The notes: generated by a model from the sequence alone, not told the origin. Positions 23,655-48,859 are shown, numbered from the stretch's first letter. The stretch: DNA of 64,000 bases from Candidatus Omnitrophota bacterium (GCA_028716705.1 JAQUPI010000001.1:1614-65613), one strand, 5' to 3'. Numbers and translations: made by a program.

Positions 23655-23706
23655 TTGACAAAAGGATGTTTCTATGTATACTCTACTATATTAATAGGAA
23701 TAGTAG
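23655..23706 (+). promoter_or_regulatory. Sigma70-like promoter (TTGACA-N16-TATACT) immediately followed by a 24-bp palindrome CTACTAT-N10-ATAGTAG; candidate Rrf2 (CymR/IscR-like) auto-operator
   Basis: -35 23655-60, -10 23677-82, inverted repeat 23683-23706, all upstream of the Rrf2 ATG at 23757. Confidence 0.5.
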
Positions 23707-23756
23707 ACATAGAGAAAGAGGCCAGTTGGGAGACGGCTTGCGAACAAGAAGATAAA

Positions 23757-24197
23757 ATGAGAGTGACATATAAAGGCGATTACGCATTAAAAGCAGTTCT
23801 GGATCTGGCGCTGCATTACGACGCGGCTTTGGTCACCAGCCATGACATTGCCCGCCGCATAGACGCTCCTGTAAAATTTTTAGAACAAGTCCTTTTGGAT
23901 CTGAAAAAAGGCGGCCTCGTGGAAAGCAGGCGCGGGAATATCGGGGGCTATTTGTTGTCCAGGCCGCCGGCTGATATTACCATCGGGGAGGTGTTAAGGA
24001 TCATTGATGGCCCGACTGAGCCGATATCCTGCGTAAACGAGAGCTATTCTAAGTGCGTGGATATAAGAAAATGCGTGTTTAAGAATATCTGGAAGAAAGT
24101 GAGCCAGGCTACCTCGAATATTGTCGATAATATAAATTTTCAAGACCTGGTTTTTCAGGTCAATTCCGCGAAGGAAGCGCTGATGTATTCAATTTAG
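23757..24197 (+). CDS. Rrf2-family transcriptional regulator (CymR/IscR-like)
   Basis: N-terminal wHTH ([26 protein letters not shown]), about 146 aa; the tracked ORF start 23655 is rejected because it overlaps the promoter. Confidence 0.8.
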
Positions 24198-24228
24198 CTA
24201 TTTGCATAAAACGCGAAAGGAGAAAGTA

Positions 24229-25524
24229 ATGGCAAAAAATGAGAATCAATTGAAATTAGAGACTATCCTTTTACACGGGGGCCAGGAGCCCGACCCAACC
24301 ACAGGTTCCAGGGCGGTCCCCATTTACCAGACCACATCATATCAATTTAAGAGCACCGAACACGCGGCTAATTTGTTCGGTCTGAAGGAATTCGGGAATA
24401 TTTATACGCGCCTGATGAATCCGACTACCGATGTCCTTGAGAAAAGGGTCGCGCTTCTGGATGGCGGCGCCGGGGCCCTGGCGGTAGCCAGCGGCCAATC
24501 CGCGATTACGCTCGCCTTGCTCAACATCGCCCAGGCGGGGGACGAAATAGTTTCCGCGGATAATCTTTACGGAGGCACATACACTCTCTTCCATTATACT
24601 TTCCCGCGCTTAGGAGTTAAGGTAAGATTTGTCCCTTCTAATGACCTGGCCGCGTTTCAAAAAGCTATTACATCTAAAACAAAGGCGATTTACTCCGAAT
24701 CGATCGGAAATCCCAAGCTCGATGTGGCGGATTTAGAGGGCATATCCAAAGTAGCTAAAAAAAACGGCATACCCTTTGTATTAGATAATACAGTCTCCCC
24801 ATATTTATTACGGCCGATCGATTTCGGGGTAGATATCGTTGTTTATTCAGCGACTAAATTTATCGGCGGCCATGGCACAAGCCTGGGAGGGTTAATAGTC
24901 GATTCCGGGAAATTCGATTGGACCAACGGAAAATTTCCCTTAATAGCCGAACCCGATCCGAGCTATCATGGCATTAATTTCGTGGAAGCGTTAAAGCCCC
25001 TTGGTAATATCGCTTATATCATTAAGGCGCGGGTAAGCTTATTAAGGGATCTGGGTCCCGCGCTTTCACCTTTTAATGCCTTTTTATTCCTGCAGGGCCT
25101 GGAAACACTGCATCTGAGGATAACCCGTCATTCTGAAAATGCTCTTGCAGTCGCAAAATATCTAAAAAAACATAAATTGGTTAGCTGGGTAAATTATCCC
25201 GGCTTGGAAGACAGCCCGGAAAAGGAAAGGGTCAAAAAGTACCTGCCGCGGGGGGCAGGGGCTATCATAGGTTTTGGAATCAAGGGTGGACTGGAGGCGG
25301 GCAAAAGGTTCATTGATTCGCTGCAATTAATATCGCATCTGGCTAACATAGGAGACGCCAAGACCCTGGCCATCCATCCAGCAACCACGACTCACCAGCA
25401 GTTATCCCCCGGCGAGCAGTTATCCACCGGGGTGACCCCCGATTTTATCCGGTTGTCCATAGGCATTGAGAGTATAGATGATATTCTCGCTGATATTGAA
25501 CAGGCATTGAAAAAGGCTGCATAA
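24229..25524 (+). CDS. metY: O-acetylhomoserine sulfhydrylase (PLP-dependent Cys/Met metabolism enzyme)
   Basis: PLP-lysine context [15 protein letters not shown]; Met-gamma-lyase/OAH sulfhydrylase family. Confidence 0.8.
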
Positions 25525-25541
25525 CTCCCTTGGAGGATGGA

Positions 25542-26477
25542 ATGGCAAAGATATTTTCGGACCTTACAAAAACAGTAGGTAATACTCCCTTGGTCAAGCT
25601 TAATCATATCACTGAGGGCCTGGAGGCGGAGATATTGGTGAAATTGGAGTCGTTCAATCCCCTTTCCAGCGTCAAGGACCGTATCGGGGTAGCGATGATA
25701 GAGGACGCGGAGAGAAGAGGTATCCTAAAAAAGAACACCACGATTATCGAGCCTACCAGCGGTAACACCGGTATCGCCCTGGCGTTTGTGGCGGCAGCTA
25801 AAGGCTACAAATTGATCCTGACCATGCCTGACACCATGAGCGTAGAAAGGCGGCAACTGCTCGCCATTTTCGGGGCAGAGCTGGTTTTGACCCCGGGAGC
25901 CGAAGGCATGAAGGGGGCTGTAAAAAAAGCCGAGGATTTGGCGAAGGAAACACCCGACTCGGTCATCTTGCAGCAATTCAATAATCCGGCTAATCCTGAG
26001 ATCCATCGCAAGACTACAGCCGAAGAAATATGGAATGACACAGACGGGAAAGTGGATGTCTTGGTTTCCGGAGTGGGCACGGGCGGCACCATTACGGGGG
26101 TCGCGGAAGTGATCAAAAAAAGGAAGCCCTCTTTTAAGGCCATCGCGGTCGAGCCTGACGCTTCGCCAGTTCTGTCCGGCGGAGCTGCCGGTTCCCATAA
26201 GATCCAGGGGATAGGGGCGGGGTTTGTGCCGCAGGTATTGAATAAGGACATCATCGATGAAGTCATCCGCGTGACTAACGAGAATGCCGCGGAGGCCGCG
26301 AGGCGCCTGGCAAGAGCGGAAGGGATACTCGCCGGCATTTCGAGCGGGGCCGCTTTATGGGCGGCTTTACAGGTGGCCAAACGCAAAGAGAGCGAAGGAA
26401 AGGTTATTGTCGTGATCCTGCCGGACACCGGCGAAAGGTACCTCACGACATGGCTTTTTCAAGAGGTAAAAGCATGA
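25542..26477 (+). CDS. cysK: Cysteine synthase (O-acetylserine sulfhydrylase)
   Basis: PLP motif [27 protein letters not shown]. Confidence 0.85.
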
Positions 26478-27634
26478 CAAAAGAAAAAATTATTTTACCG
26501 GAAAACAACGTTGGAATAGTCAAGACCGAGTATTTCTCGTTTAACGGGATCACCCTTGAGAGCGGCGAAAAGTTCGGGCCGATCACTCTTGCTTACGAAA
26601 CCTACGGCAAGTTAAACGCGAGCAAGTCCAACGCGGTTTTGATCCTCCACGCGCTCTCCGGAGACGCGCACGCCGCCGGCCTTCACGCGGAGCAGAACGC
26701 TATTGGCTGGTGGGATTCCATGATCGGACCCGGAAAGGCCTTTGATACGAACAAGTATTGTGTCATCTGTTCGAATGTCATTGGCGGGTGTAAAGGTTCA
26801 ACCGGGCCGTCGAGCGTAAACCCCAAGACAAACAAGCCTTACGCGCTGGATTTCCCTCTTATTACCATAGGCGATATGGTCACGGCGCAAAAACATCTGA
26901 TTGAATCTTTGGGTATAGAGAAACTGCTGACCGTAGTTGGAGGCTCGATGGGCGGGATGCAGGTTTTATCCTGGCTGGTCAAATATCCCAGGAAGGTCCG
27001 CAGTGTCATCCCTATCGCCACGGCTATAAAACACTCGCCGCAGCAGATCGCCTTTAATGAAGTAGGCAGGCAGGCGATCATGGCTGACGCGTATTGGAAA
27101 TCAGGGAATTATTATGAAGGCCCTGTGCCCGCAAAAGGCCTGGCAGTGGCCCGGATGATCGGGCATATAACATATATGAGCGATATATCGATGGCGGAAA
27201 AGTTCGGCAGGCAAAAGAAAAACTACGCCGAGCCATTTAAATTTACCGCTGATTTTGAAGTTGAAGGGTATCTGCGTTATAGAGGCGATAATTTTGTCAA
27301 GCGCTTTGACGCCAATTCTTACCTTTATATCACTAAGGCGATGGATAACTTTGACGCTTCCAAAGGCAAACCGTTCTATGAGGTTTTAAAAGATGTAGAA
27401 GCAAAAGCGCTGGTAGTTGCCTTTAAATCAGACTGGCTTTATCCGGCTTACCAATCGAAAGAGATAGCCAAGGCCTGCAAGCTTTCCGGGATCGACGCGA
27501 CTTACTGTGAAATTGATTCCACTTACGGCCACGACGCGTTTCTTTTGGAGGTAGCGGAGGAAACACACCTTATTTCGCATTTCTTAAAAAAGGTGGTTTT
27601 TGAGTATGAGGCGAAAGGAAGACATGATAAATAA
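26474..27634 (+). CDS. metX: Homoserine O-acetyltransferase
   Basis: Alpha/beta hydrolase fold with GGSMGG nucleophile elbow; MetX-like N-terminus; ATGA overlap with cysK. Confidence 0.85.
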
Positions 27635-28217
27635 AGGTGTACGTCTTGACCATGAAATAATACTGGAACTGGTCGGGCCGCAGTCTACGGTACTGGACCT
27701 TGGCTGCGGTACGGGCGAGCTTTTGGATATCCTGGCCAAAGAAAAAAAGACCAGGGGGCAGGGTATAGAGATAGACGAGCAGGCGATATATGAATGTGTC
27801 GCCAGGGGGGTGAGTGTTTTCCATGGCGACGTGGACAGCGGCCTGGCCGAATACAATGACAGTTCGTTTGATTATGTAATATTGAATCAGAGCCTGCAGC
27901 AGATAAGGCATGTGGATACGGTCCTTAACGATGCTTTGCGTGTCGGGAAGAAGGTGATCGTAGGCATACCTAATTTCGCTTTTTACAAAGCGAGGGTACA
28001 GATGTTCTTCAGGGGCAGGGCTCCTGTTACCGGATCTCTCCCCTACCAATGGTATGAAACGCCGAACCTGCATTTTTTAAGCATACTTGATTTCATATAC
28101 TATTGCCGCGAGAAAAAGATCAATATTGAGCAGAGCAAGTATATTAACGAGAAAAAACGCGTAATCCTGTTCCCTAACCTGTTCGCGCTGGTGGGGATAT
28201 TCCTGATTTCAAGATAA
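27624..28217 (+). CDS. metW: Methionine biosynthesis protein MetW
   Basis: SAM-MTase-like [10 protein letters not shown] motif; canonical metX-metW pairing; start at ATG 27624 (AAGGAAG RBS). Confidence 0.75.
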
Positions 28218-28246
28218 AAGCGAGTAAGGCTAGGATCCGTGCAAGG

Positions 28247-28285
28247 GGGCCCGGAGACGAAGATATCCGGGCCTGTTTGTTCTTT
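28247..28285 (+). terminator. Terminator-like hairpin after metW (GGCCCGGA...TCCGGGCC + T-rich tail)
   Basis: 8-bp GC stem read in the sequence. Confidence 0.45.
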
Positions 28286-28308: not shown

Positions 28309-28488
28309 ATGCCGTATATCAATCTGAAATTAGTGGGAAAGTTAAGTAAAGAGCAAAAGGGAAAGATAGCGAAAGAATTCTCGGATACGCTTCTTAAGGT
28401 CGCAGGCAAGCCCAAAGAAAGCCTGTATCTGGTTATCGATGAAGTTTCCGGGGAGAATTGGGCGCAGGGTGAGAAGTTTTTCGGATAA
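28309..28488 (+). CDS. 4-oxalocrotonate tautomerase family protein (59 aa, N-terminal Pro1)
   Basis: RBS AAGGAGG; starts MPYINLKLVGK (Pro after the initiator Met) and is of tautomerase-family length; not in the ORF track. Confidence 0.6.
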   Translation: MPYINLKLVGKLSKEQKGKIAKEFSDTLLKVAGKPKESLYLVIDEVSGENWAQGEKFFG

Positions 28489-28504: not shown

Positions 28505-29251
28505 TTGGGCGTAAAGGAGAAACAGATGAGTTTGTTGTCGAACAAAGATGATTTAAAAGAATTAGTTGAAAAGCTGAACTTTAAAGAAAAAGTTGAGCGC
28601 TCTAAGGAGCTCCTCAGGGAGTCCTATGCGAAATACGGCGATTTTTTGGTTGTGGCTAACAGTTTGGGGAAGGATTCGGTGGCCGTTTGGGACCTGGCAA
28701 AGAGGGTAAACCCGAAGATCCGCGGTTTTATTGTTACCACAAGATATAAGCCCCCGCAAACCGTACGGTTTATGAATGATGTTGTTTCCAGGTATCCTGA
28801 ATTAAAAGTTTACAAAAATGATGACCCCATAGGCGAAAGGCTTTATGAAAACGAGCCTGATAAGTGCTGCGATATCTTGAAAGTCATCCCGGTTAAGCAG
28901 GCGATACAAGAAATGCATGTGAAATGCTGGGTGACGGGCCTGCGCTGCACCGAAGGGCGCACGCGCACGGATTTTAAAGAAGTCGAAGAAAGGGACAAGG
29001 GCCTTATCAAGCTAAATCCCATACTTATCTGGAAAGAGAGGGAAGTCTGGCAGTATTTGGCTCTTTATCAGGTTCCTGTTAACCCTCTGTATGCCGAGGG
29101 TTACCGTTCTTTGGGCTGCGCTCCCTGCACCAAAATTACCAATGACGATAATGAGCGCGCCGGCCGCTGGATAGGCACGAGCAAGTGCGGCGGAGAATGC
29201 GGGATCCATACCAGGCCCTTAAAAACTAATGTAGCGGGAGACGGGATTTGA
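28505..29251 (+). CDS. cysH: Adenylyl-sulfate (APS/PAPS) reductase, thioredoxin-dependent, Fe-S (CC...CxxC) type
   Basis: PAPS-reductase PP-loop-like N-terminus; KCCDILKV and SLGCAPCT cysteine motifs typical of 4Fe-4S APS reductases. Confidence 0.75.
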   Translation: MGVKEKQMSLLSNKDDLKELVEKLNFKEKVERSKELLRESYAKYGDFLVVANSLGKDSVAVWDLAKRVNPKIRGFIVTTRYKPPQTVRFMNDVVSRYPELKVYKNDDPIGERLYENEPDKCCDILKVIPVKQAIQEMHVKCWVTGLRCTEGRTRTDFKEVEERDKGLIKLNPILIWKEREVWQYLALYQVPVNPLYAEGYRSLGCAPCTKITNDDNERAGRWIGTSKCGGECGIHTRPLKTNVAGDGI

Positions 29252-30213
29252 TCGGATATTTCTTCTTAGCCGTGCTTGTTGTTTTTTTCGCCTTTAATAT
29301 GGGCGCGAGCGGGATCGCCCCCTCCTTCGCTTCTGCTTATGGCGGAAGATTGATCAAGAAAAGGAGCGCCCTTTTATTATTCGCGATCTTTGTAATCCTG
29401 GGAGCGGTTACTTTGGGCAGGAATGTAGCCCTTACCCTGGGCAAGGGTTTATTGCCCCAGGAATTTGTGAGCTTTGATGTAGTGTTGGTTATACTTGTCG
29501 CGGCGACTGCCGGGCTTTTCTTAGCCAACCTGTTGAAGATCCCGCAGTCAACCAGCCAGGTTACTGTAGGGGCAATTTTAGGAGCGGGAATGTATTTTAA
29601 TGATTTGAATCAGAGGACTTTTTTTCTGAAAATACTTCCCGTGTGGATCCTCTTACCCTTATTGTCCTATCTATTCACATGGCTGATCTACCGGAAGGTC
29701 TATCCTCCGGAACACGATAACCTGCATATCTATCAAAAATTATTCGCTAATGAGAAGAAATTAAAATTACTTGCTTTGATAGCGAGCTGTTATGTCGCTT
29801 TCGCTATCGGCACAAATAACGTTGGGAACGCTGTCGGGCCTTTATTCGGGGCAGGCATCATGGGGATCAATATAGGCTTGATCCTGGTCTCGCCGCTTTT
29901 TGGCATCGGCGCTTTGATCCTGGGAAAAGGAACCCTTGAGACAGCAGGCAAGGAGATAATACCGCTGGGATTATTCTCAAGTACTTTGGTCTCATTTGTT
30001 ACAGCTACCCTGTTAATAATCGCCTCGTCCTTGGGGATACCGCAGTCGCTGGTGCAACTCAATATACTTTCTATTTTCGCGGTAAGTTGCCTGAAAGACG
30101 GGCATAAATGTACATTGGACCGGCAGTTAACCAAGAAAACATTCCTTATTTGGGCAATTACGCCTTTAATTTCTCTAGTCTTATCTTATTCGTTGTTGTT
30201 TATGATAAAATAA
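29248..30213 (+). CDS. PiT-family inorganic anion permease; by context a CysP-like sulfate permease
   Basis: Multi-TM protein with duplicated GANDVANA-like motifs (GTNNVGNAVGP); cysH-cysP adjacency as in the Bacillus cysH operon. Confidence 0.65.
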   Translation: MIGYFFLAVLVVFFAFNMGASGIAPSFASAYGGRLIKKRSALLLFAIFVILGAVTLGRNVALTLGKGLLPQEFVSFDVVLVILVAATAGLFLANLLKIPQSTSQVTVGAILGAGMYFNDLNQRTFFLKILPVWILLPLLSYLFTWLIYRKVYPPEHDNLHIYQKLFANEKKLKLLALIASCYVAFAIGTNNVGNAVGPLFGAGIMGINIGLILVSPLFGIGALILGKGTLETAGKEIIPLGLFSSTLVSFVTATLLIIASSLGIPQSLVQLNILSIFAVSCLKDGHKCTLDRQLTKKTFLIWAITPLISLVLSYSLLFMIK

Positions 30214-30271
30214 GAGAACGTTTACGGAGAAAAAACCCCAAACCTTACCTGGCCTTATCGGATAGGCCAGT

Positions 30272-30352
30272 ATGCGTTGCTGCGCAATCGGATGGTGCGC
30301 ACTTTCTGTGCAGCACCCGATCCTATCGGATGAATCGATGTGCATTTTCTAA
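30272..30352 (+). CDS. Candidate 26-aa Cys-rich upstream ORF (MRCCAIGWCALSVQHPILSDESMCIF) ending 14 nt before the cysK2 start
   Basis: 5 Cys codons in 26 including a CC pair; preceded by hairpin GGCCTTATCGGATAGGCC; no clear SD; speculative. Confidence 0.2.
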   Translation: MRCCAIGWCALSVQHPILSDESMCIF

Positions 30353-30365
30353 GCAAGGAGAAGAT

Positions 30366-31301
30366 ATGTCTTTTTCGGACAAGATCATTAATAATGTTAC
30401 TGAATTGATCGGCCATACTCCGCTGGTAAGGCTAAACCGCATGGTCAACGATAAGATGGCGGATATTTTGGCGAAATTAGAATCCTTTAACCCCAGCGGA
30501 AGCGTAAAAGACAGGATCTGCCTTGAGATGATCGAAGACGCGGAGAAAAAAGGCCTGCTTAAGGCAGGCTCAACCATAGTTGAGCCTACTTCAGGCAATA
30601 CCGGAATCGGCCTGGCCATGATCTCCGCCGTGAAAGGATATAAATGTATCCTGGTGATGTCTGAAGCCATGAGCCTGGAAAGGATATACATACTCAAAAC
30701 TTACGGGGCCCAGATCGTGCTTACGCCTGCTTCTGAGGGCATGCAGGGAGCGATCAACAAGGCGCAAGAAATCATAAGAAAGACCCCGGATAGTTTTATG
30801 CCGCAGCAATTTAAGAACGCGGCTAATCCCGAAGCGCACCGTAAATCTACCGCTTTGGAGATACTCGAGGCGACAAAGGGCGATCTTGACGCTTTTGTTT
30901 CGGGAGTCGGCACCGGAGGAACCATTACCGGCGTGGGCGAAGTCCTCAAGAAACATGATAAGAATATAAAGATCATTGCCGTCGAACCAAAAGGGAGCGC
31001 GGTTTTGTCCGGACAAAAAGCGGGTTTTCACAGGATCCAGGGTATCGGGGCCGGCTTTATCCCGGATATCTTAAACCGGGGCATTATCGACGAGGTGATC
31101 CCCGTGGAAGATAAAGACGCTTTCAGGATAGCAAAATCGCTGGCTAAGGAAGAAGGGCTCTTCGCCGGTATTTCAGCGGGAGCCGCTGTATGGGCCGCTT
31201 TAAAAGTTGCCGGGGAAATGGGCAAAGGTAAGCGCATTGTGGTAGTGTTGCCGGATACGGGAGAAAGGTATTTTTCCATGCAGCAGTATTTTGAGGCATA
31301 A
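30366..31301 (+). CDS. Cysteine synthase paralog (CysK/CysM-like)
   Basis: RBS AAGGAGAAG; [26 protein letters not shown] motifs; tracked ORF 30108 trimmed to ATG 30366. Confidence 0.85.
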   Translation: MSFSDKIINNVTELIGHTPLVRLNRMVNDKMADILAKLESFNPSGSVKDRICLEMIEDAEKKGLLKAGSTIVEPTSGNTGIGLAMISAVKGYKCILVMSEAMSLERIYILKTYGAQIVLTPASEGMQGAINKAQEIIRKTPDSFMPQQFKNAANPEAHRKSTALEILEATKGDLDAFVSGVGTGGTITGVGEVLKKHDKNIKIIAVEPKGSAVLSGQKAGFHRIQGIGAGFIPDILNRGIIDEVIPVEDKDAFRIAKSLAKEEGLFAGISAGAAVWAALKVAGEMGKGKRIVVVLPDTGERYFSMQQYFEA

Positions 31302-31303
31302 AC

Positions 31304-41210: not shown

Positions 41211-41248
41211 AGTAAACCCGATATAATAAAATAGTTGACGGTTCGACT
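41211..41248 (+). promoter_or_regulatory. Candidate BirA operator: degenerate inverted half-sites GTAAACCCG ... CGGTTCGAC overlapping a TATAAT hexamer (41222-27) upstream of bioB
   Basis: 6/9 match between half-sites; reminiscent of E. coli bioO TTGTAAACC architecture; weak. Confidence 0.2.
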
Positions 41249-41278
41249 AATGCTCTAACGTGATTCAAAGGATTGACA

Positions 41279-42196
41279 ATGGACAAACAAGAATTGATCA
41301 GGCTCTCGCGGCTGCCTTTACTGGAGCTGATAGCCATGGCTGATGAGGCCAGGCGCGAGTTTCAAGGCTTGAACCTGGAATTATGCAGCATAATGAACGC
41401 CAAATCAGGAGCCTGCGGCGAGGACTGTAAGTTCTGCGCCCAGGCCGGCCGCCACGCGACGCGGATATCATCCTTCCCGTTGAAAAGTAAAGAAGAAATG
41501 ATAGAGCGGGCCTGGCGCGCGAAGGACATAGGCGCTGAAAGGTTCGATATCGTTACCAGCGGGGATAACCTTTCGGAAAAAGAACTGAATGCCGTCGCGG
41601 AGGCGATCAGGGAAATAACCGGTAAAGTTAAAATAAAAATGTGCGCCTCTTTAGGCACGCTTGATAAAGACGCCTTTGAATTATTAAAAGATTCGGGGCT
41701 TTCCCGTTATCACCATAATATCGAAACCTCCCCGGGGTACTTCCCGCGCATTGTCACCACGCATACCTTCCAGCGGAGGATAGAAACCATCAAGCAGGCG
41801 AAAGCCGCCGGCTTGCAGGTTTGCAGCGGAGGCATAATCGGCATGGGGGAGAGCATGCAAGACAGGATAGAGATGGCCGCCTGCTTGAAAGAGCTGGACG
41901 TCGACTCCGTCCCGCTCAACGTGCTCGTCCCTATAAAAGGTACGCCTTTCGAGGATCTTAAGCCGCTTTCCTGCGAAGAGGCTGTCAGGACGATAGCGGT
42001 ATTCCGGGTGATATTAAAAGATAAGATCATCAAAATAGCGGCGGGCAGGGAATCCATCCTCAAGGATTTTCAGGCGATGGCTTTTATGGCGGGGGCTAAC
42101 GGCATGCTGATCGGCGGATATTTGACCATAAAGGGGCGGGAGGCCCACGAAGACCAGAAACTTGTTGAGGAAGTCAAGAGGGCATGGCGGAGATAA
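41279..42196 (+). CDS. bioB: Biotin synthase (radical SAM)
   Basis: CGEDCKFC radical-SAM motif; RBS AAGGA. Confidence 0.9.
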   Translation: MDKQELIRLSRLPLLELIAMADEARREFQGLNLELCSIMNAKSGACGEDCKFCAQAGRHATRISSFPLKSKEEMIERAWRAKDIGAERFDIVTSGDNLSEKELNAVAEAIREITGKVKIKMCASLGTLDKDAFELLKDSGLSRYHHNIETSPGYFPRIVTTHTFQRRIETIKQAKAAGLQVCSGGIIGMGESMQDRIEMAACLKELDVDSVPLNVLVPIKGTPFEDLKPLSCEEAVRTIAVFRVILKDKIIKIAAGRESILKDFQAMAFMAGANGMLIGGYLTIKGREAHEDQKLVEEVKRAWRR

Positions 42197-43335
42197 GGCA
42201 ATTCCTCGAAAAAAGAAAAGCACAAGGCTTGTTGAGGGCCTTAAGCCCGGCGTCTATGCGGCGGGAAGGGAAAATTTATTTTGGCAAAAAGGAATTTGTC
42301 GATCTTTCCTCCAATGATTATCTGGGTTTATCGGGCCATCCCAGGATTATTGAAGCGGCAAGAAAAGCGCAGGATAAATTTGGGAACTCATCTTCCGGCT
42401 CGCGCCTTTTAAGCGGGGACTTGAACTTGCACCATGAGCTCGAAGAGTCCGTAGCCCGCTTCAAGAATAAAGAATCCGCCCTGGTTTTTAATTCCGGTTA
42501 CCACGCGAATATAGGAGTATTAAGCTCCCTCTACGGAAAGGACGATTGTATATTTTCGGACCGTTTGAATCATGCCAGCATTGTCGACGGGGTTATTCTT
42601 TCCAGGGCGCGTTTTTTCCGTTTCCGGCATAATGACACCGCCCATCTTGAGTCGCTCCTCAACGAACAAAGAGGAAGGTTTAGAAAAGCGCTGATCGTTA
42701 CCGAAAGCGTCTTCAGTATGGACGGCGATAAAGCGCCTTTAAAGGGATTAGTCCGGCTCAAAGATAAATATGATTGCTCGATGATGATCGATGAAGCGCA
42801 CGCCACCGGAATATTCGGAAAGAACGGAAGCGGCCTGGCTGAGGAGGAAGGGCTGGCAGGTAAAATAGAGTTGATTATGGGGACTTTTGGCAAGGCGCTG
42901 GGCAGCTTCGGTGCTTACGTGGCTTCTTCGCGCGAGATAATCGAATATTTGATAAACACCTCCAGGAGCTTTATTTATTCCACGGCGCTTCCTCCCGCGG
43001 TAATCGCGTCGGATTTAGCTTCCATAGGATTAATAGAGCAAGAGCCCTTTCGCAGGTTAAAACTCTTGGAATCGGCGGCAAACCTGCGCGGCGCATTAAA
43101 GGAGAAGGGATTTGACGTCAAGGGGGAGTCCCAGATCGTCCCCTTGATCACCGGCGATAACTTAAGGACCGTAAAATTGGCCAAAAGGCTTCAGGAAAAA
43201 GGCTACTGGGTATTACCCATCAGGCCTCCGACTGTCCCTCAAGGGGAAGGCCGGCTCAGGTTTTCATTATCCTTTTGCCATAATAAAGATACTTTAGAGA
43301 GGCTTATCGATGATATCTCAGGAATCGAAGTTTGA
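42184..43335 (+). CDS. bioF: 8-amino-7-oxononanoate synthase
   Basis: Alpha-oxoamine synthase family; PLP-Lys context TFGKALGSFGAY. Confidence 0.85.
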   Translation: MAEIRQFLEKRKAQGLLRALSPASMRREGKIYFGKKEFVDLSSNDYLGLSGHPRIIEAARKAQDKFGNSSSGSRLLSGDLNLHHELEESVARFKNKESALVFNSGYHANIGVLSSLYGKDDCIFSDRLNHASIVDGVILSRARFFRFRHNDTAHLESLLNEQRGRFRKALIVTESVFSMDGDKAPLKGLVRLKDKYDCSMMIDEAHATGIFGKNGSGLAEEEGLAGKIELIMGTFGKALGSFGAYVASSREIIEYLINTSRSFIYSTALPPAVIASDLASIGLIEQEPFRRLKLLESAANLRGALKEKGFDVKGESQIVPLITGDNLRTVKLAKRLQEKGYWVLPIRPPTVPQGEGRLRFSLSFCHNKDTLERLIDDISGIEV

Positions 43336-44011
43336 ATTAATTGACCGGGGTTTTGACAGAAAGATACTTCTCATACCCGGATGGGCGGTGGATTACCGGG
43401 TTTTTGGCGGCCTGGAATTAGGTTATAACTATTTATTGCCTACCGAACTAAATCCTCTTGATTTTGAAAGCGCGTTGAGCGGCGCATTGGAAAAAGAAAA
43501 TACCGGGAAGATCTCGCTTTTGGGCTGGTCAATGGGCGGGTTTCTGGCTTCGGATTTTGCCTCTAAGAACCCGGATAAGGTAGACGAGCTTATACTGGCG
43601 GGCATACGCAGGAAATACAGCCCGGAATTATTGAACGAGGTGAAGCGTTTAGTTACCCAGAATAAAAGGGCGTTCCTTTACAAGCTCTATCTCAATTCTT
43701 TTTCAGAAACGGACCAGGAAGGCCTGAAGTGGTTCAGGGAGCATTTATTGGATATATATGTCAATGAATTGGATTTAGACGTGCTTCTATCGGGGCTGGA
43801 TTATCTCTCTAAAGCCGAAATTAACCCCGCCTCGCTGGGGAAGATCAAAAAGATAAAGATAATCCATGGAGAAGAAGATAAGATCGCTTCGCTTGATGAG
43901 GCGTTAAAGGTCAAGTCGGAATTGCCTCAGGCGGAATTTATCGCCTTGCGGAAAATGGGGCACTTCCTGTTTTTGAACCGGCAGTTTACGAAAAGCCTAA
44001 GTAATGAATAA
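43310..44011 (+). CDS. Alpha/beta-hydrolase, BioH-like pimeloyl-ACP methyl ester esterase
   Basis: GWSMGG nucleophile elbow; position between bioF and bioC. Confidence 0.6.
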   Translation: MISQESKFELIDRGFDRKILLIPGWAVDYRVFGGLELGYNYLLPTELNPLDFESALSGALEKENTGKISLLGWSMGGFLASDFASKNPDKVDELILAGIRRKYSPELLNEVKRLVTQNKRAFLYKLYLNSFSETDQEGLKWFREHLLDIYVNELDLDVLLSGLDYLSKAEINPASLGKIKKIKIIHGEEDKIASLDEALKVKSELPQAEFIALRKMGHFLFLNRQFTKSLSNE

Positions 44012-44768
44012 GGAAATAATCGCCAGGAATTTTTCCAGATACGCGCATCTTTATGACAGGTTCGCCGATATCCAGAAGAGGGCTGCTTTGGAAATTATAG
44101 GCGGCATGGAAAATGACGGTTTTAGCGACATTCTGGAGATAGGATGCGGCACAGGGAATTACACTTTACTTTTGCGCGATAAATTCAAGGAAGCCAGCCT
44201 TACCGCGGTAGATATATCCCCAAGGATGATCGATATCGCCCGGGATAAGCTGGGAGGCAAGAGGATAAATTTTCTCGCGGCTGACGCGGAAGTGAAGGAT
44301 CTGACCGCCGAAAAATATGACCTTATTACTTCCAATGCCTGTTTCCAATGGTTTGAGGACCTCGGGAAGGCCATACAGACCTACAGGCTAATGCTTAAAG
44401 AAAAAGGCACGATCTTATTTTCCATTTTCGGGCCGCTTACCTTTTGGGAATTAAACGCGGCTTTAGGGGAAACGATGAAAAGGAATATTCCGGCAGAGAA
44501 GTTTTTAAATAAAGATAAGATAATCGAAATTCTCAGGGAGAATTTCCGCAGCGCGGGTATAGAGGAGGCGGTATATGAGGAATCATTCGCCAGCCTGCGG
44601 GACCTATTAATGAAAATAAAATACAGCGGCATAAATGGCGGCGGCTTGGCGGGAAAAGTCCAGTTTAGCCGGAGAAGCTTGAGGGATTTGGAAAGGACAT
44701 ATTTGGATAAATTTCAAAGGATGAAGGCGACCTATCAAGTCTTCTTTTGCCGCGGGCAGGCAGGATGA
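44004..44768 (+). CDS. bioC: Malonyl-ACP O-methyltransferase
   Basis: SAM-MTase motif ILEIGCGTGNYT; bio-operon context. Confidence 0.75.
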   Translation: MNKEIIARNFSRYAHLYDRFADIQKRAALEIIGGMENDGFSDILEIGCGTGNYTLLLRDKFKEASLTAVDISPRMIDIARDKLGGKRINFLAADAEVKDLTAEKYDLITSNACFQWFEDLGKAIQTYRLMLKEKGTILFSIFGPLTFWELNAALGETMKRNIPAEKFLNKDKIIEILRENFRSAGIEEAVYEESFASLRDLLMKIKYSGINGGGLAGKVQFSRRSLRDLERTYLDKFQRMKATYQVFFCRGQAG

Positions 44769-45448
44769 AAAGTGTATTCATTACCGGCACCGATACGGGC
44801 GTAGGCAAGACAACGGTTACGGCGTTGTTAGGCAGGTATCTTGCCGATAAAGGTTATAAAGCCGCAACCCAAAAATGGATTGAAACCGGGTGCAGGGAAA
44901 AATTGGAAGGAACGCCTGCCGCGCCGTACAGGTTCAGGGTTCCTTGTTCTCCGCATTTGGCCTCCGGGATAGAGAAAAGATCGATCGATCCGGATAAGAT
45001 CGTAAAGAGCTTCAGGTCTTTGGCGGGAAAAAACGACTTTGTTATCGTGGAAGGGATAGGCGGAGCTCTGGTGCCTTTCAATGAAAAAGATCTGGTGATA
45101 GATATCGCGGTGAGGTTGAAATTGCCGGTATTGGTAGTCGCGCAGAATAAATTGGGCGCGATCAACCATACCTTATTGACCGTCGAGGCCCTGAGAAAAA
45201 GAAAGCTGAATATTATGGGAATAATTTTTAATGATATAAAGGGAGAAGACAGCCGGATAGCCAGGGATAATCCTTCGATCATCAGGTCTTTAACCGCAGA
45301 AAGGGTTCTTGGGATCTTGCCTTGGACAAAGGATTGGGAGAAATTATACGGAAGCTTTTGTAATATAGGAGATAAGATATTAAGCGGATTTATCGATGCC
45401 GCAACTCTTTATAAGCCAAAGAGTTATAAGCTAAGGGAGCGTCCCTGA
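44765..45448 (+). CDS. bioD: Dethiobiotin synthetase
   Basis: P-loop ITGTDTGVGKT; ATGA overlap with bioC; start moved to ATG 44765. Confidence 0.85.
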   Translation: MKSVFITGTDTGVGKTTVTALLGRYLADKGYKAATQKWIETGCREKLEGTPAAPYRFRVPCSPHLASGIEKRSIDPDKIVKSFRSLAGKNDFVIVEGIGGALVPFNEKDLVIDIAVRLKLPVLVVAQNKLGAINHTLLTVEALRKRKLNIMGIIFNDIKGEDSRIARDNPSIIRSLTAERVLGILPWTKDWEKLYGSFCNIGDKILSGFIDAATLYKPKSYKLRERP

Positions 45449-45463
45449 TATGGAGGATATTCG

Positions 45464-46816
45464 ATGGATTTACTGAAAAAAGACGCTGAATTCATCTGGC
45501 ATCCTTACACGCAAATGAAGGATTGCCGTAAATTCCCTCCCATATTGATAAACAGGGCAAAAGGGGTAAAGCTTTACGATAAGCAGGGGAATTTTTATTA
45601 TGATACCATATCCAGCTGGTGGTGTAATGTGCACGGCCACAATCATCCGAAAATAAAATCCGCGGTTAAAAAACAATTCGACGCGCTGGAGCATGTGGTT
45701 TTTGCCGGTTTTACCCATGAGCCCGCCATACTCCTCGCTGAGAAACTTATCTCGATCGCACCCGGAAAATTAAAAAAGATATTTTTTTCAGACAATGGAT
45801 CTACGTCAGTTGAAGTAGCGCTTAAAATGTCGTATCAATATTGGCAGAATACAGGTAAGGCCAAAAAGAAAAACTTTATTTCCCTGGACTACGGATATCA
45901 TGGGGATACTATCGGCACTATGAGCGTCAGCGGGGTGGACCTTTTTAATAAAGTGTTCTCGCCTTTATTCTTCGAGTCTTTTAAAGCGCCTTCCCCGTAT
46001 TGTTATCGCTGCCCCATGGGTAAGGACATTTCCCATTGCGGTATGGATTGCGTAAACGCGCTGGAGAGATTGCTGATAAAAAGATCGGATACTATCTGCG
46101 GGATCATCCTTGAGCCGATGGTCCTTGCCGCGGGAGGGATGATCGTGTATCCGAAAGAGTACCTATCGAGGGCAGCGGCGTTGGCCCGCAAATACGATGT
46201 CCACCTTATACTGGACGAGGTAGCCACGGGTTTCGGCAGGACGGGTAAGATGTTCGCCTGCGAACACGCGGATAATATAGAACCAGACCTGTTTTGCCTT
46301 TCCAAAGGCATAACCGGAGGCTGCCTGCCTTTAGGGGCCACGCTTACGACAAAAAAGATATTCAACGCCTTTTACGCGGATTATAAGAAAAAAAAGACTT
46401 TCTTTCACGGCCATACCTATACCGCGAATCCTTTAGCCTGTTCCGCCGGGGTAGCCAGCTTGGAAGTTTTCAGAGAAGAAAAAACATTAGATAGAATGAA
46501 GGAAATGATCCCTTTATTTCACAGGGGTATGGAGAAATTCCGTGATCTGACGCTGGCGGGAGATGTAAGATATCTAGGTATGCTCGGCGCCGTGGAATTA
46601 GTCAAGGATAAGCCTTCCAAAAAGGGTTTTCCTTTCGAAAAGCGGATAGGGCTGGAAGTTTATAAGAGGGGATTAAGGAAGAATATTGTGTTAAGGCCGC
46701 TGGGAAACGTCATTTATCTGTTCCTGCCGCTTTGCATAAGAAAAAAAGAACTTGAAGAAATACTGGACAGGACATACGCGATAATTAGGGACAGCGACTA
46801 TTTTTTAAATAAATGA
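45464..46816 (+). CDS. bioA: Adenosylmethionine-8-amino-7-oxononanoate aminotransferase
   Basis: Class III aminotransferase; PLP-Lys context CLSKGITGG. Confidence 0.85.
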   Translation: MDLLKKDAEFIWHPYTQMKDCRKFPPILINRAKGVKLYDKQGNFYYDTISSWWCNVHGHNHPKIKSAVKKQFDALEHVVFAGFTHEPAILLAEKLISIAPGKLKKIFFSDNGSTSVEVALKMSYQYWQNTGKAKKKNFISLDYGYHGDTIGTMSVSGVDLFNKVFSPLFFESFKAPSPYCYRCPMGKDISHCGMDCVNALERLLIKRSDTICGIILEPMVLAAGGMIVYPKEYLSRAAALARKYDVHLILDEVATGFGRTGKMFACEHADNIEPDLFCLSKGITGGCLPLGATLTTKKIFNAFYADYKKKKTFFHGHTYTANPLACSAGVASLEVFREEKTLDRMKEMIPLFHRGMEKFRDLTLAGDVRYLGMLGAVELVKDKPSKKGFPFEKRIGLEVYKRGLRKNIVLRPLGNVIYLFLPLCIRKKELEEILDRTYAIIRDSDYFLNK

Positions 46817-46834
46817 AAAATAGTCGCTGTCCCT
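46787..46834 (+). terminator. Perfect 18-bp-arm palindrome AGGGACAGCGACTATTTT-N12-AAAATAGTCGCTGTCCCT overlapping the bioA stop; bidirectional terminator-like; followed by tandem CCCTATTAAATT x2 (46831-46856)
   Basis: Read directly. Confidence 0.55.
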
Positions 46835-46856
46835 ATTAAATTGCCCCTATTAAATT

Positions 46857-47939
46857 ATGGAAAGAGTAGTCGTGGCCATGAGCGGAGGCGTGGATTCATC
46901 TGTTGCCGCGGCCCTTTTAAAAGACAAGGGTTACGAGGTTATCGGGATCACTATGTGTTTTAACCTTCCGGATTCTTTCGGGAAAAGGCCTTCGTGCTGC
47001 GGCTTGCAAGGAATTGATGACGCCAAAAAGGTCGCGCGCAAACTGGGGATCAGGCATTATGTATTGAATTTTCAGAAGGCCTTGCAGGAGAAAGTGATCA
47101 GTGAATTCCGGGACGAATATTTGCGCGGGCGCACGCCTAATCCCTGCGTAAGATGCAACCAGTTCATAAAGTTTGACGCCTTGCTAAAGAAGGCGCTGGC
47201 CCTGGGCGCTGAATATCTGGCAACCGGGCATTACGCCAGAGTAAAGAAGGGGCTAAGGACAAAAGGAAGCAAGCGGGCAAGTTATATCCTGAAAAAGGCG
47301 AAAGATAAGAAAAAGGATCAATCCTATTTTTTGTACCGTTTAAATCAGAACCAGCTCAGGCATACGCTTTTCCCGCTGGGAAATTATACTAAAGACGAGG
47401 TAAGAAAAATGGCTAAAGGTTTTGGCTTATCGGTGGCAGATAAGCTAGCCAGCCAGGAGATATGTTTTCTCCCCGGGAACGATTACCGCGCGTTTTTAAG
47501 GGCTATTAAAAAGGGGATCAAGCCCGGAGATATAGTCGACAGCGAGAATAATGTGTTGGGCAGGCATAAGGGTATCCCTTTCTATACTATCGGCCAGCGC
47601 GAAGGGTTAGGCATCGCTATGGGTTATCCGGTATACGTGATCAAAATAGACCCTAAAAATGACCGCATAACCGTAGGCGGAAAAGGAGAGGTTTACGCCA
47701 GGGAATTCCTGGTTACAGACATACACCTGGCTTTACCGGTCCTAAAAAAGAGAATTGCCCTAAAGGTAAGGATAAGGTATAATCATCCAGAAGCGGCGGC
47801 AGAGGCTGAATTTTTGGGGAACAAAGCGAAAATTTCGTTTAAATCGCCGCAGTTTGCCGTAACCCCGGGCCAGTCAGCTGTCTTTTATGACAAAGGATCG
47901 GTATTAGGAGGCGGTATTATTGACGAGGTCTTAAAATGA
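46857..47939 (+). CDS. mnmA: tRNA-specific 2-thiouridylase
   Basis: PP-loop VAMSGGVDSSVAA; conserved catalytic Cys regions. Confidence 0.85.
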   Translation: MERVVVAMSGGVDSSVAAALLKDKGYEVIGITMCFNLPDSFGKRPSCCGLQGIDDAKKVARKLGIRHYVLNFQKALQEKVISEFRDEYLRGRTPNPCVRCNQFIKFDALLKKALALGAEYLATGHYARVKKGLRTKGSKRASYILKKAKDKKKDQSYFLYRLNQNQLRHTLFPLGNYTKDEVRKMAKGFGLSVADKLASQEICFLPGNDYRAFLRAIKKGIKPGDIVDSENNVLGRHKGIPFYTIGQREGLGIAMGYPVYVIKIDPKNDRITVGGKGEVYAREFLVTDIHLALPVLKKRIALKVRIRYNHPEAAAEAEFLGNKAKISFKSPQFAVTPGQSAVFYDKGSVLGGGIIDEVLK

Positions 47940-48859
47940 TGAATAAGAAGTTTTCCGACGAATTGCTAAGCAAGATCGTCGCGCTTAAAAAACAACGCAA
48001 CGCCATAATCCTGGCGCATAACTATCAGCTTCCCGAGGTCCAGGACGCAGCTGATTTTCACGGGGATTCCCTGGAATTGAGCCGCGCGGCGGCAAAGACC
48101 GACGCCGAAGTGATCGTTTTCTGCGGAGTGCACTTTATGGCGGAGACGGCTTCTATCCTCTGTCCCCAGAAAAAAGTGATCATGCCCGACTTATCCGCCG
48201 GATGCCCGATGGCGAACATGATGTCTGCCGCGCAACTCAGGGATTTAAAGAAGGCGCACCCAAACGCGGCGGTGGTTGGTTATGTCAACACTTCCGCTGA
48301 GGTTAAAGCCGAATTGGACGTATGTTGTACTTCCACCAACGCGGTAGCGGTGGTCAATGCCCTTAAAGACAAGGAAGAGATCATCTTTGTCCCGGATAAA
48401 TACCTGGCGGACTACGTGTCAAAAGTAACAGGCAGGCAGCTTATTTCCTGGAACGGTTTCTGCCCCACCCACATAAAGATCCTGCCCGAAGATATCAAGC
48501 GCGAAAGAAGATTCCATCCCTTCGCCAAAGTAATGGTGCATCCGGAGTGCCTGCCGCAGGTAGTCTCGATAGCTGACGCCGTTCTTTCCACGAGCAGGAT
48601 GTGTAAATTCGCCAAGGAAAGCGACGTAAAAGAGTTCATCGTCGGCACAGAAGTGGGTTTAATATACCGCTTGAAGCAGGATAACCCCAAGAAAGAATTT
48701 TATCCCGCTTCCGAGAGGGCGGTCTGCCCGAATATGAAGCGCACCACCCAGGAGAAAATTCTCTGGGCTTTGGAAGAGCTCAAAGAAGAAGTGAGGGTTT
48801 CTGATGACATCCGGGCGCGTTCGAAGAAAGCCATAGACAGGATGCTCGAGATAGTTTAA
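47936..48859 (+). CDS. nadA: Quinolinate synthase
   Basis: NadA-like three-repeat body with conserved Cys (FCGVHFMAE...CPTH...CPNMKRT). Confidence 0.85.
   Translation: MMNKKFSDELLSKIVALKKQRNAIILAHNYQLPEVQDAADFHGDSLELSRAAAKTDAEVIVFCGVHFMAETASILCPQKKVIMPDLSAGCPMANMMSAAQLRDLKKAHPNAAVVGYVNTSAEVKAELDVCCTSTNAVAVVNALKDKEEIIFVPDKYLADYVSKVTGRQLISWNGFCPTHIKILPEDIKRERRFHPFAKVMVHPECLPQVVSIADAVLSTSRMCKFAKESDVKEFIVGTEVGLIYRLKQDNPKKEFYPASERAVCPNMKRTTQEKILWALEELKEEVRVSDDIRARSKKAIDRMLEIV

Follow-up and report, generated by a model that had tools for sequence, protein, structure and literature searches.

The 64,000-nucleotide (nt) stretch of Candidatus Omnitrophota bacterium DNA analyzed here (GCA_028716705.1 JAQUPI010000001.1:1614-65613; the window) contains, between positions 23655 and 48859, a series of genes for sulfur assimilation, siroheme synthesis, sulfur transfer and biotin synthesis headed by a gene for an Rrf2 regulator. 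A first-pass annotation had taken these 25 kb for a single super-operon. We favor, with a probability of roughly 0.68, a reading in which the series would be a mosaic sulfur island, composed of modules that are each conserved in the phylum and divided over several separately controlled units; evidence against a single super-operon came from a predicted BirA operator/−35 element separating birA from bioB, from a promoter-like site before nfu and from a hairpin after metW. Judged from sequence and synteny, a predicted Rrf2 regulon in which cysteine/methionine (Cys/Met) synthesis is combined with a small sulfite reductase (SiR), with the making of siroheme and with the reduction of adenosine 5'-phosphosulfate (APS) is real and conserved, as are a predicted nfu-larE-nifS-birA operon and a putatively BirA-controlled bio operon. 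Gene identities in the window were assigned by NCBIfam and Pfam profile searches with curated cut-offs. All genes named earlier, from rrf2 to nadA, were present in the order given and on the + strand (ORFs, NCBIfam and Pfam), on which all genes and stranded features described below lie, and the domain searches reassigned no key gene. The labels nrnA, bioH and cysP stood at the level of the family, with scores under the curated cut-offs (97.5 versus 350, 41.7 versus 207 and 256 versus 400, respectively). Start positions were revised for metX (26474), cysH (28526), the second cysK (cysK2; 30366) and nfu (37982).

The rrf2 gene (23757..24197; TIGR00738, 117.8 bits with a cut-off of 73.3) encodes an IscR-like protein with an Rrf2 winged-helix domain and three cysteines. 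Its start was moved to 23757, since the Rrf2 domain begins at residue 35 of the original open reading frame (ORF); the TTG at 23655 is part of a −35 box and not a start codon. The promoter, TTGACA-N16-TATACT (23655..23682; 11/12 consensus matches), directly abuts with its −10 box a predicted 24-bp operator, the palindrome CTACTAT-N10-ATAGTAG (23683..23706, no strand assigned). A repressor sitting there would keep the open complex from forming. Scored with a position weight matrix (PWM), the site reached 27.6, the next best site in the window 10.6 and the maximum over 20 shuffles 19.5. A cTTGACAa-N16/17-TATACT promoter was found at the equivalent position, with the same promoter/operator geometry, in >20 aligned relatives, and PWM sites were located 32 to 62 nt 5' of rrf2 in 31 loci, with few stray matches in ~2 Mb. 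The conservation of promoter and operator, together with the small number of stray sites, strongly supports the palindrome as the predicted Rrf2 operator, a role that had been proposed for it earlier and that is consistent with its occurrence beside the conserved promoter in >30 Omnitrophota loci.

Scores of the window Rrf2 protein were below the equivalog cut-offs for IscR (95.3 versus 207.55 and 84.4 versus 275) and CymR (88.5 versus 195). Its top PDB match was 4cic, which we take to be Thermincola potens IscR; E. coli IscR and CymR ranked behind it. The residues C92, C100 and C106 were kept in 21/21 close homologues (50 to 71% identity), and the protein is best seen as IscR-like and probably as a cluster-sensing repressor that controls a sulfur regulon. 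In other Omnitrophota the same position, with a similar operator, is occupied by Rrf2 proteins of greater divergence, of which some do not have the three cysteines.

Conservation was assessed in ~95 related loci overall, with a species-level scan anchored on SiR covering 68 Omnitrophota loci and a set anchored on LarE comprising 27 loci (59 to 72% LarE identity). An unbroken sirC-hemA-hemC-cobA-hemB-hemL-SiR series was present in 38/43 SiR-anchored loci with enough upstream DNA, and cysH, with or without cysP-cysK, lay upstream in 41/43 informative ones. Directly 3' of SiR (50 loci) we found rrf2 in 13, metY in 12, unrelated genes in 22 and nrnA in 0. The modules occurred in at least three orders, i.e., [rrf2][cys/siroheme][met], [cys/siroheme][rrf2][met] and [met][cys/siroheme], and the order of the window (met, then cys/siroheme) recurred in loci L044 and L058. 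PWM sites were also present upstream of the cysH unit, before the small ORF preceding cysH, in 23 loci. In many loci, L002 and L003 among them, the Rrf2 operator is separated from cysH by a small DUF2061 ORF (~73 amino acids [aa], beginning with MEHPKRS...); this ORF is absent from the window. In L044 and L058 the module order is the same as in the window, yet an operator is located between the tautomerase gene and cysH, a junction that in the window spans only 37 nt. Neither a pattern search (≤3 mismatches) nor the PWM returned a second Rrf2 operator in the window before the tautomerase gene/cysH, cysK2, nrnA, nfu, bioB or mnmA. As the operator copy before the cysH unit is missing, this unit is most likely expressed by read-through from the rrf2 promoter; we infer that the cys/siroheme unit was fused behind that promoter, an example of operon fusion in which the unit would have lost its own operator on landing there. 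The first 13 kb, from rrf2 to SiR, is probably one Rrf2-controlled unit. We found no paper on an Rrf2-cysH operator.

The LarE-anchored loci shared a backbone that starts as [fprA-rbr-trxR]-(thi genes)-rrf2-cysK-nfu-(HcyBio + NIL/ferredoxin)-larE-nifS-birA and continues after birA as (bio operon or TonB-dependent receptor)-mnmA-nadA-rluA-MFS-aas. Within this set larE was followed by nifS in 16/19 loci, birA was present in 13/13, nfu was located upstream in 14/14 and rrf2 in 9/13, and mnmA plus nadA were located downstream in 6/7. In relatives an rrf2-headed operon runs through cysK, nfu, larE, nifS and birA with gaps of ≤40 nt. SiR was near LarE in 1/27 LarE-anchored loci (L078), and the LarE module was beside SiR in ~3/50 SiR-anchored loci. 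L078, a distant relative, carries nearly the full gene set of the window in a different order, and the particular concatenation in the window is rare even inside the phylum (the window and L078). Compared with these relatives, the window appears as the conserved backbone, its rrf2...birA and mnmA...aas parts carrying four predicted insertions: met, cys/siroheme and nrnA between rrf2 and nfu, and the bio operon between birA and mnmA.

Directly 3' of birA, the motif TGTAAACC-N14-AGTTGACA was conserved in 10 relatives, and its right half forms the −35 of a TTGACA-17-TATAAT promoter located 5' of bioB or of a gene for a TonB-dependent receptor. At the equivalent position in the window we found a predicted BirA-operator-like AGTAAACC-N14-AGTTGACG (41211..41240, no strand assigned), the right half of which overlaps a −35-like TTGACG. 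The conserved BirA operator/−35 and the presence of a helix-turn-helix (HTH) domain in BirA together indicate that the bio operon would be separate and is presumably biotin responsive. Where the bio operon is missing, a TonB-dependent receptor gene stands behind the BirA operator/promoter (L076, L077, L079, L080, L083, L085 and L092), which suggests BirA-regulated biotin uptake in Omnitrophota that do not have a bio operon there.

Other candidate boundaries are predicted from consensus or folding. An intrinsic terminator after thi4 (23598..23642), consisting of a 14-bp perfect stem followed by UUUUUAUUU (dG −22.5 kcal/mol, z = −4.6), is predicted to insulate the block from upstream transcription, by which thi4 is, on sequence grounds, a separate regulatory unit. 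After metW, a GC-rich hairpin followed by UGUUUGUUCUUU (28246..28275; dG −25.7 kcal/mol, z = −2.65, U-rich tail) is a possible terminator or attenuator within the Rrf2 unit; a scan returned no other convincing + strand terminators within the block. Promoter-like sites were seen before nrnA (36906-36934; TTGACA/TATAAT-like boxes, 10/12 consensus matches) and before nfu (TTGACA-N17-AAGAAT, 37922..37950; 10/12 matches), the latter followed by a ribosome-binding site and the ATG at 37982, and in some relatives nfu-headed (nfu-larE-nifS) units stand alone with their own upstream regions. Of the internal promoters and terminators that, according to the first-pass annotation, would split the block, a BirA operator/−35 site, the promoter-like sites and the metW hairpin were found, all as predictions. 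No riboswitches were detected inside the block: Rfam at gathering thresholds gave only the thiamine pyrophosphate (TPP) riboswitch upstream of thi4, and a permissive scan of 23.5 to 49 kb remained at chance level. Among intergenic spacers, only the operator was matched in relatives, apart from the identical assembly L001. The 40-nt bioA-mnmA spacer is mostly filled by a tandem 14-nt repeat, TG(T/C)CCCTATTAAAT x2 (46828-46855).

The packing of the genes was then compared with that of their surroundings. In a greedy ORF map of the whole window, 62/63 long ORFs were on the + strand, spacers were mostly tiny or negative across all 64 kb and GC skew was >0 over most of the window. The genes had been described as contiguous, same-strand and mostly overlapping. 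Between rrf2 and nadA there are 28 junctions, of which 15 are overlaps and 5 are gaps of ≤20 nt; three further gaps were 37 to 40 nt, and five were 54 to 152 nt, between metW and the tautomerase gene (91 nt), cysP and cysK2 (152 nt), nrnA and nfu (90 nt), nfu and larE (54 nt) and birA and bioB (89 nt). Tight packing does not stop at nadA, where the block had been taken to end. Past 48859 packing is equally tight up to 53392, with a gap of 0 nt to rluA and overlaps of 11 nt at the gene for a major facilitator superfamily (MFS) transporter and 4 nt at an 886-aa gene, and the end of the block at 48859 is arbitrary. Same-strand contiguity is a trait of the genome region and not of the 25-kb block, so that co-linearity alone is no evidence for an operon; super-operons should not be read from co-linearity in strand-biased genomes.

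A reading in which the sulfur modules are adjacent merely by descent, as backbone synteny kept in a strand-biased genome that rearranges slowly, and are coupled neither by selection nor by regulation, appears unlikely. The order of unrelated neighbors is equally conserved in LarE-anchored relatives (fprA-rbr-trxR-thi upstream and rluA-MFS-aas downstream) and the presence of nrnA and of the bio operon varies, all of which would fit such an origin, but the rrf2, met and cys/siroheme modules remain neighbors through their reshuffling, two of these units share one operator in relatives, and distant LarE homologues on metagenome contigs (45 to 52% identity) lie beside mnmA, nadA, cysK or nifS homologues in 15/57 loci. 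Modules of the Rrf2 regulon probably lie close together through selection for being co-regulated or co-inherited, and the remainder through inherited backbone synteny. The coupling of sulfur supply to sulfur-dependent cofactor genes that had been claimed earlier was supported in part: the sulfur modules stay adjacent despite rearrangement, thi4 is predicted to be separate, and bio has its own putative operator.

Even less probable, in our estimate, is a super-operon of ~25 kb running from the rrf2 promoter through nadA under Rrf2 control throughout. Its appeal lies in the co-directionality of all genes with 20/28 tight junctions, the sole Rrf2 operator at the head, the lack of any strong canonical + strand terminator among the predictions inside the block, the contiguous rrf2-cysK-nfu-...-larE-nifS-birA (gaps of ≤40 nt) of relatives and the nearly identical gene set of L078. 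It is contradicted by the conserved BirA operator and −35 between birA and bioB, the promoter-like site before nfu together with the independent nfu-headed units of relatives, the metW hairpin (−25.7 kcal/mol, U-rich tail) and the separation of the modules in most species, and contiguity does not discriminate since packing continues into rluA, MFS and aas, all on one strand. Least credible is a single Rrf2 operon from rrf2 to birA (23.7 to 41.2 kb) with separate bio and mnmA units, which is favored by the uninterrupted rrf2...birA series with one operator in relatives, the 4-nt overlaps of larE/nifS/birA and the mere 10/12 matches, no commoner than in shuffled sequence, of the nrnA and nfu promoter-like sites, and opposed by the gaps of 40, 90 and 54 nt around nrnA and nfu with their TTGACA/TATAAT-like boxes, the lineage-specific insertion of nrnA and the hairpin after metW.

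Several observations weigh against the mosaic of separately controlled units. If the metW hairpin truly terminates, the genes from cysH to SiR need a promoter, and none was found in the 91-nt spacer. The promoter and terminator calls are consensus or folding predictions, and such sites are no more frequent than in shuffled sequence. The BirA site of the window is off consensus in both half-sites (two mismatches), with a poor −10. The rrf2-to-birA series of relatives looks like a single operon (gaps of ≤40 nt), and read-through to birA is conceivable in the window as well. Finally, the loci are phylogenetically non-independent, by which counts overstate the support.

For the mosaic island we propose the following arrangement. 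Unit 1 (23655 to ~36900) would be one transcript under an autoregulating three-cysteine Rrf2 repressor and would combine two modules that are apart in relatives, metY-cysK-metX-metW-tautomerase and cysH-cysP-cysK-sirC-hemA-hemC-cobA-hemB-hemL-small SiR; read-through from the rrf2 promoter would pass the metW hairpin, which may attenuate it, to reach the cysH module. Unit 2, the nrnA-like DHH phosphoesterase gene, would be a lineage-specific insertion. Unit 3, nfu-larE-nifS-birA, would represent the ancestral tail of the rrf2 operon, which in the window follows a promoter-like site of its own. Unit 4, bioB-F-(H)-C-D-A, would be placed by the BirA operator overlapping the −35 under biotin-responsive, not sulfur-responsive, control. 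Ahead of Unit 5, mnmA-nadA-rluA-MFS-aas, the analysis returned no separate signal, and this unit may be co-transcribed with the bio genes. Sulfur would flow in Unit 1 from sulfate to sulfide to cysteine and homocysteine and would be spent by NifS, Nfu, the Fe-S-type LarE, MnmA and BioB. This amounts to a regulatory model that can be put to the test, comprising regulator, promoter, operator and target operons, for the way in which a large uncultured phylum assimilates sulfur. A stronger version, in which an Fe-S-sensing Rrf2 coordinates, via a phylum-specific 24-bp operator, sulfate reduction, siroheme synthesis, Cys/homocysteine synthesis and the NifS-Nfu-LarE relay, with a siroheme branch that is maybe non-canonical, is doubtful as a whole.

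In the Cys/Met module, metY (O-acetylhomoserine sulfhydrylase; 24202..25524; TIGR01326, 676.5 bits) is followed by cysK copy 1 (25530..26477; TIGR01139, 482 bits), metX (homoserine O-acetyltransferase; 26474..27634; NF001209, 505.6 bits), metW (27600..28217; TIGR02081, 237 bits) and a 59-aa gene of the 4-oxalocrotonate-tautomerase family (28309..28488; PF01361, E = 1e-10). The last of these, between metW and cysH, had been overlooked in the earlier gene list; by synteny it is the conserved final gene of the metY-cysK-metX-metW module (L003, L006, L008, L044, L058, L060 and L062). A HcyBio gene (PF01837) plus a NIL/ferredoxin gene lie between nfu and larE in 11/14 LarE-anchored loci, including L076 to L079, and are lacking in the window. 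These genes presumably resemble methanogen-type homocysteine genes, and MetX/MetY/MetW of the window apparently replace the HcyBio homocysteine route, i.e., a pathway swap at one locus.

The sulfate-reduction genes begin with cysH (28526..29251; NF002537, 173.7 bits with a cut-off of 154), for which the earlier label of APS-reductase type held: its product has the fold PAPS_reduct and the Fe-S (APS-type) signature of C121-C122, C205xxC208 and E231-C232-G-I-H (ECGIH), the preference for APS over 3'-phosphoadenosine 5'-phosphosulfate (PAPS) being predicted. It is followed by a gene for a cysP-like PiT-family permease (29248..30213; NF053884, 256 bits, under the cut-off of 400), which has a PHO4 domain in relatives, and, after a structured 152-nt spacer (30214..30365; several hairpins, fold dG −45.6 kcal/mol, z = −2.1), by cysK copy 2 (30366..31301; TIGR01139, 454 bits). 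The spacer had no Rfam match and no counterpart among relatives, in which the gap is ~20 nt. In line with the first-pass annotation, which had noted the absence of sat and cysC, profile searches found no sat, cysC or cysDN in the window; none were present in the 10 kb upstream or ~7 kb downstream either. In L061 (Ca. Omnitrophus magneticus) and L066, another metagenome-assembled genome (MAG), cysD and cysN are located inside the cluster between cysH and sirC, and sulfate activation is sometimes part of the module in Omnitrophota. Genes at the end of the window were considered as asrABC and rejected: they scored higher as the beta and gamma subunits of a sulfhydrogenase/hydrogenase, and a [NiFe] hydrogenase of the membrane-bound kind comes next. 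These sulfhydrogenase/AsrAB-like beta and gamma subunits are encoded at 61506-63875, and a membrane-bound [NiFe] hydrogenase/antiporter module lies beyond the window (L160).

The DHH/DHHA1 phosphoesterase gene (NrnA-like; 36941..37891; NF053633, 97.5 bits, under the cut-off of 350), the product of which has DHH and GGGH motifs, adjoins the cluster. It had been tied to the block as a gene for a phosphatase of 3'-phosphoadenosine 5'-phosphate (pAp). CysH enzymes of the APS-type class release AMP, not pAp, and with the CysH of the window being of that type, the rationale given for a pAp phosphatase becomes weak; moreover, the adjacency was shared by 0 of ~95 related loci.

The siroheme genes are shortened in part. 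The product of sirC (31304..31795; TIGR01470, 115.7 bits, profile positions 1-139 of 205) consists of 163 aa and is a NAD_binding_7 module alone, comprising the precorrin-2 dehydrogenase domain only. The hemA gene (31764..32741; TIGR01035, 166 bits, under 209.55, profile positions 3-326 of 416) encodes 325 aa without the dimerization domain, as seen in the alignment to 1gpj, and hemC (32726..33391; TIGR00212 profile positions 1-208 of 293) encodes 221 aa with domains 1 and 2 only. They are followed by cobA (uroporphyrinogen-III C-methyltransferase; 33337..34044; TIGR01469, 254.8 bits), hemB (34034..34939; NF006762, 396 bits) and hemL (34921..36174; NF000818, 531 bits). Glutamyl-tRNA reductase (short hemA), glutamate-1-semialdehyde aminomutase (hemL), porphobilinogen synthase (hemB) and S-adenosylmethionine:uroporphyrinogen-III methyltransferase (cobA) are thus all encoded. 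The alignment of HemC to 1pda stops near residue 203, and the cofactor-bearing domain 3 is missing, as it is throughout in 51 Omnitrophota relatives (median, 217 aa). The catalytic Arg, Lys and Asp were kept across 52 sequences, among which there was no conserved Cys; a C-terminal Cys of the short HemC was rejected as a replacement cofactor site, only 3 sequences having one. An exhaustive HMMER search recovered the same truncated module in other organisms fused as HemC-CobA-HemD, HemC-HemD and SirC-HemA-HemC. For HemD itself, no HEM4 match was obtained among window ORFs, and tblastn with four HemD segments was negative in the window and in 159 loci (~2 Mb in all; 51 of the loci carry the cluster hemC); ORF sizes and tblastn led us to reject a HemD hidden in the cluster. 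No SirB/CbiX ferrochelatase was recognized in the window. The siroheme supply that had been ascribed to the block is incomplete as encoded, with HemD and ferrochelatase not found and HemC lacking domain 3, which raises the question of the route to siroheme. The Rrf2-controlled siroheme branch may be non-canonical, with a hydroxymethylbilane synthase (HMBS) that lacks the dipyrromethane-holding domain and Cys and no co-encoded uroporphyrinogen-III synthase in ~50 species. We found no paper on a natural domain-3-less HMBS or on siroheme/sulfate assimilation in Omnitrophota.

The small siroheme/[4Fe-4S] SiR (36178..36900; Pfam NIR_SIR_ferr plus NIR_SIR) is 240 aa long, and its cluster ligands CX5C...CX3C (C99, C105, C142 and C146) were invariant in 15 sequences. 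Its top PDB match was the C-terminal half of Fsr (7np8), and PDB matches also included nitrite reductases; the context of cysH and cysK argues for sulfite rather than nitrite as the substrate. An identical SiR is encoded in GCA_028710245.1, a Candidatus Omnitrophota MAG.

Unit 3 starts with nfu (37982..38203), a NifU C-terminal-type Fe-S carrier matching the C-terminal Nfu/NifU region of TIGR03341 and TIGR02000 (73 aa in L001). It is followed by the gene for a LarE-family PP-loop sulfur transferase of the CXXC-C ([4Fe-4S]) type (38258..39064; TIGR00268, 314 bits with a cut-off of 150), a cluster motif of the LarE family that has been defined previously (PMC9283937). SGGVDS (from S25), C96xxC99 and C176 were invariant, and in an alignment to 5udq/6b2o S179, R211 and R213 aligned with L. 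plantarum S180, R212 and R214, which bind the phosphate of P2CMN, the mononucleotide of pyridinium-3,5-biscarboxylic acid. Next are nifS (class I cysteine desulfurase; 39061..40227; TIGR03402, 581 bits with a cut-off of 531) and birA (40224..41183; TIGR00121, 229 bits, and TIGR00122, 46.6 bits), which has an N-terminal HTH (HTH_11) and is of the bifunctional ligase/repressor type (class II); the larE/nifS/birA overlaps are 4 nt. LarB, LarC and a LarA-family user were found neither in the window nor in the Pfam-annotated relatives L076 to L079. The arrangement raises the question of the role that a LarE-family enzyme plays among nfu, nifS and birA. Given that larE is always co-operonic with nifS and birA and is beside an alternative-type BioB with no LarB/LarC nearby, the enzyme may be a general [4Fe-4S] sulfur insertase (e.g., supplying sulfide for BioB or homocysteine synthesis) and not an NPN (nickel-pincer nucleotide) cofactor enzyme.

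BioB (41273..42196; TIGR00433, 390 bits) is of an alternative type, having a Cys at the position of E. coli S43 and an Asp at that of C97 (RFDIVTSG), hence not Type I (with a [2Fe-2S] auxiliary cluster). PDB alignments ranked 8vdw > 8vcw > 1r30, Type II structures fitting better than E. coli BioB. This residue pattern is that of the "Type D" alternative class (PMC10813225), and the authors of that study reported that neighborhood analysis gave no sulfur supplier for Type II BioB (PMC10813225). The nfu-larE-nifS-birA-bioB arrangement is a candidate lead to such a supplier. Downstream of bioB are bioF, an alpha/beta-hydrolase gene in the BioH position, bioC, bioD and bioA (42184..46816; TIGR00858, TIGR02072 [just under the cut-off], TIGR00347 and TIGR00508; BioH match weak), followed by mnmA (46857..47939; NF001138, 424 bits; C97xxC100...C203) and nadA (47936..48859; NF006878, 423 bits). 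Genes for an RluA-family pseudouridine synthase, an MFS transporter and the 886-aa AMP-binding/PP-binding/acyltransferase protein (acyl-ACP synthetase-like, aas) occupy 48860..53392 and are also found 3' of mnmA-nadA in relatives. Anaerobic Fe-S-type signatures recur across the sulfur users, i.e., LarE (CXXC-C), MnmA (CxxC...C) and BioB, and in CysH as well, and in Thi4 a His replaces the sacrificial Cys.

This thi4 (thiazole synthase, His-type ATGHD; 22740..23573; Pfam Thi4, E = 4.9e-65) is preceded by the TPP riboswitch (22553..22664; Rfam RF00059, 63.5 bits with a gathering threshold of 54.3) and a terminator-like stem (22668-22694). Riboswitch and stem are bracketed by a 32-nt direct repeat (22458-22489 and 22694-22725; 30/32 identical, spacing of 236 nt), a pattern that looks like a duplication or insertion of the riboswitch cassette. 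An oxidative-stress cluster (7845-21039) precedes the thi genes and codes for desulfoferrodoxin, ferritin, a peroxiredoxin-PCD fusion, DJ-1, an FNR-like protein, flavodiiron FprA, rubrerythrin and a TrxR-like protein, of which dj1, fnr, fprA, rbr and trxR have the same order in LarE-anchored relatives. In L162 (10 kb upstream of the window) a second Rrf2 gene stands, at 6043-8827, at the head of a unit with genes for ferredoxin and a hybrid-cluster protein (Prismane), and in L076 another Rrf2 gene heads oxidative-stress genes. At the other end, in the regions 53472-59453 and 58000-60000, a strong predicted promoter, TTGACA-N16-TAGAAT (53389-53416), is located ahead of an RHS-repeat protein gene (1497 aa) and another RHS fragment, and GC content drops to 36% at 58 to 60 kb, which suggests a toxin/immunity cassette.

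The island was compared with known systems. The Bacillus subtilis cysH operon is cysH-cysP-sat-cysC-ylnDEF. Like the window, it has an Fe-S CysH followed by a PiT-family sulfate permease, with siroheme-branch genes in the same operon; unlike it, the window has no sat/cysC, includes hemA, hemL, hemB, hemC and SiR, has a 240-aa single-module SiR instead of CysJI and carries the Rrf2 gene and operator in cis. CysP/Pit and 4Fe-4S CysH have been referenced together with the fpr2-cysIXHDNYZ operon of Corynebacterium glutamicum, in which sulfate uptake and reduction, SiR and the siroheme-maturation protein CysY (similar to SirB) are encoded (PMC1266029). That cluster, too, joins sulfate uptake/reduction, sulfite reductase and a siroheme gene, but it is under McbR instead of Rrf2, includes cysDN, lacks the trunk hem genes and, in contrast to the window, is not linked to genes for Cys/Met synthesis, NifS, Nfu or biotin.

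As regards the regulator, IscR/iscRSUA and Gram-positive iscRSU share with the window a three-cysteine Rrf2 protein that would autoregulate from a palindrome at its own promoter, and genes for a class I desulfurase and for a protein of the NifU type are found, as in isc operons, in the rrf2 operon of relatives. The window Rrf2 differs from IscR in its C-X7-C-X5-C spacing, without a His three residues past the last Cys, in its operator (CTACTA-N12-TAGTAG) and in its predicted regulon, which is sulfate reduction, siroheme and Cys/Met synthesis and not an IscU scaffold. CymR of B. subtilis and S. aureus (2y75 and 3t8r) is likewise an Rrf2-family master regulator of cysteine metabolism to which cysK is linked. 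CymR is not known to have cluster-ligating Cys and needs a complex with CysK, whereas the window Rrf2 has three cysteines and a CymR score (88.5) below the cut-off (195).

In B. subtilis, NifS sits beside nad genes. There, as in the window, a class I desulfurase gene is kept near mnmA and nadA. Dedicated desulfurase-acceptor pairs of B. subtilis, YrvO-MnmA and NifZ-ThiI, have been described (PMC8300815). Unlike the B. subtilis pairs, the window NifS adjoins a LarE-family enzyme, Nfu and BirA, with the mnmA-nadA pair 6.6 kb downstream. The window SiR resembles the small SiRs and the C-terminal half of Fsr (7np8/7npa) in being a single ~27-kDa NIR_SIR_ferr plus NIR_SIR module with CX5C...CX3C. 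Small "alSiR" enzymes occur in Desulfovibrio and Methanosarcina, and the window SiR has ~30% identity to archaeal homologues (L073); unlike that of other small SiRs, its gene has a fixed place as the last one of an operon for siroheme biosynthesis within a single bacterial phylum. Finally, the E. coli-type BirA/bioO system has in common with the window and its relatives an HTH-bearing BirA and an inverted repeat, TGTAAAC...GTTGACA, that overlaps the bio promoter. Unlike in E. coli, birA is located here directly 5' of the putative operator, and in bio-less relatives the operator precedes a gene for a TonB-dependent receptor.

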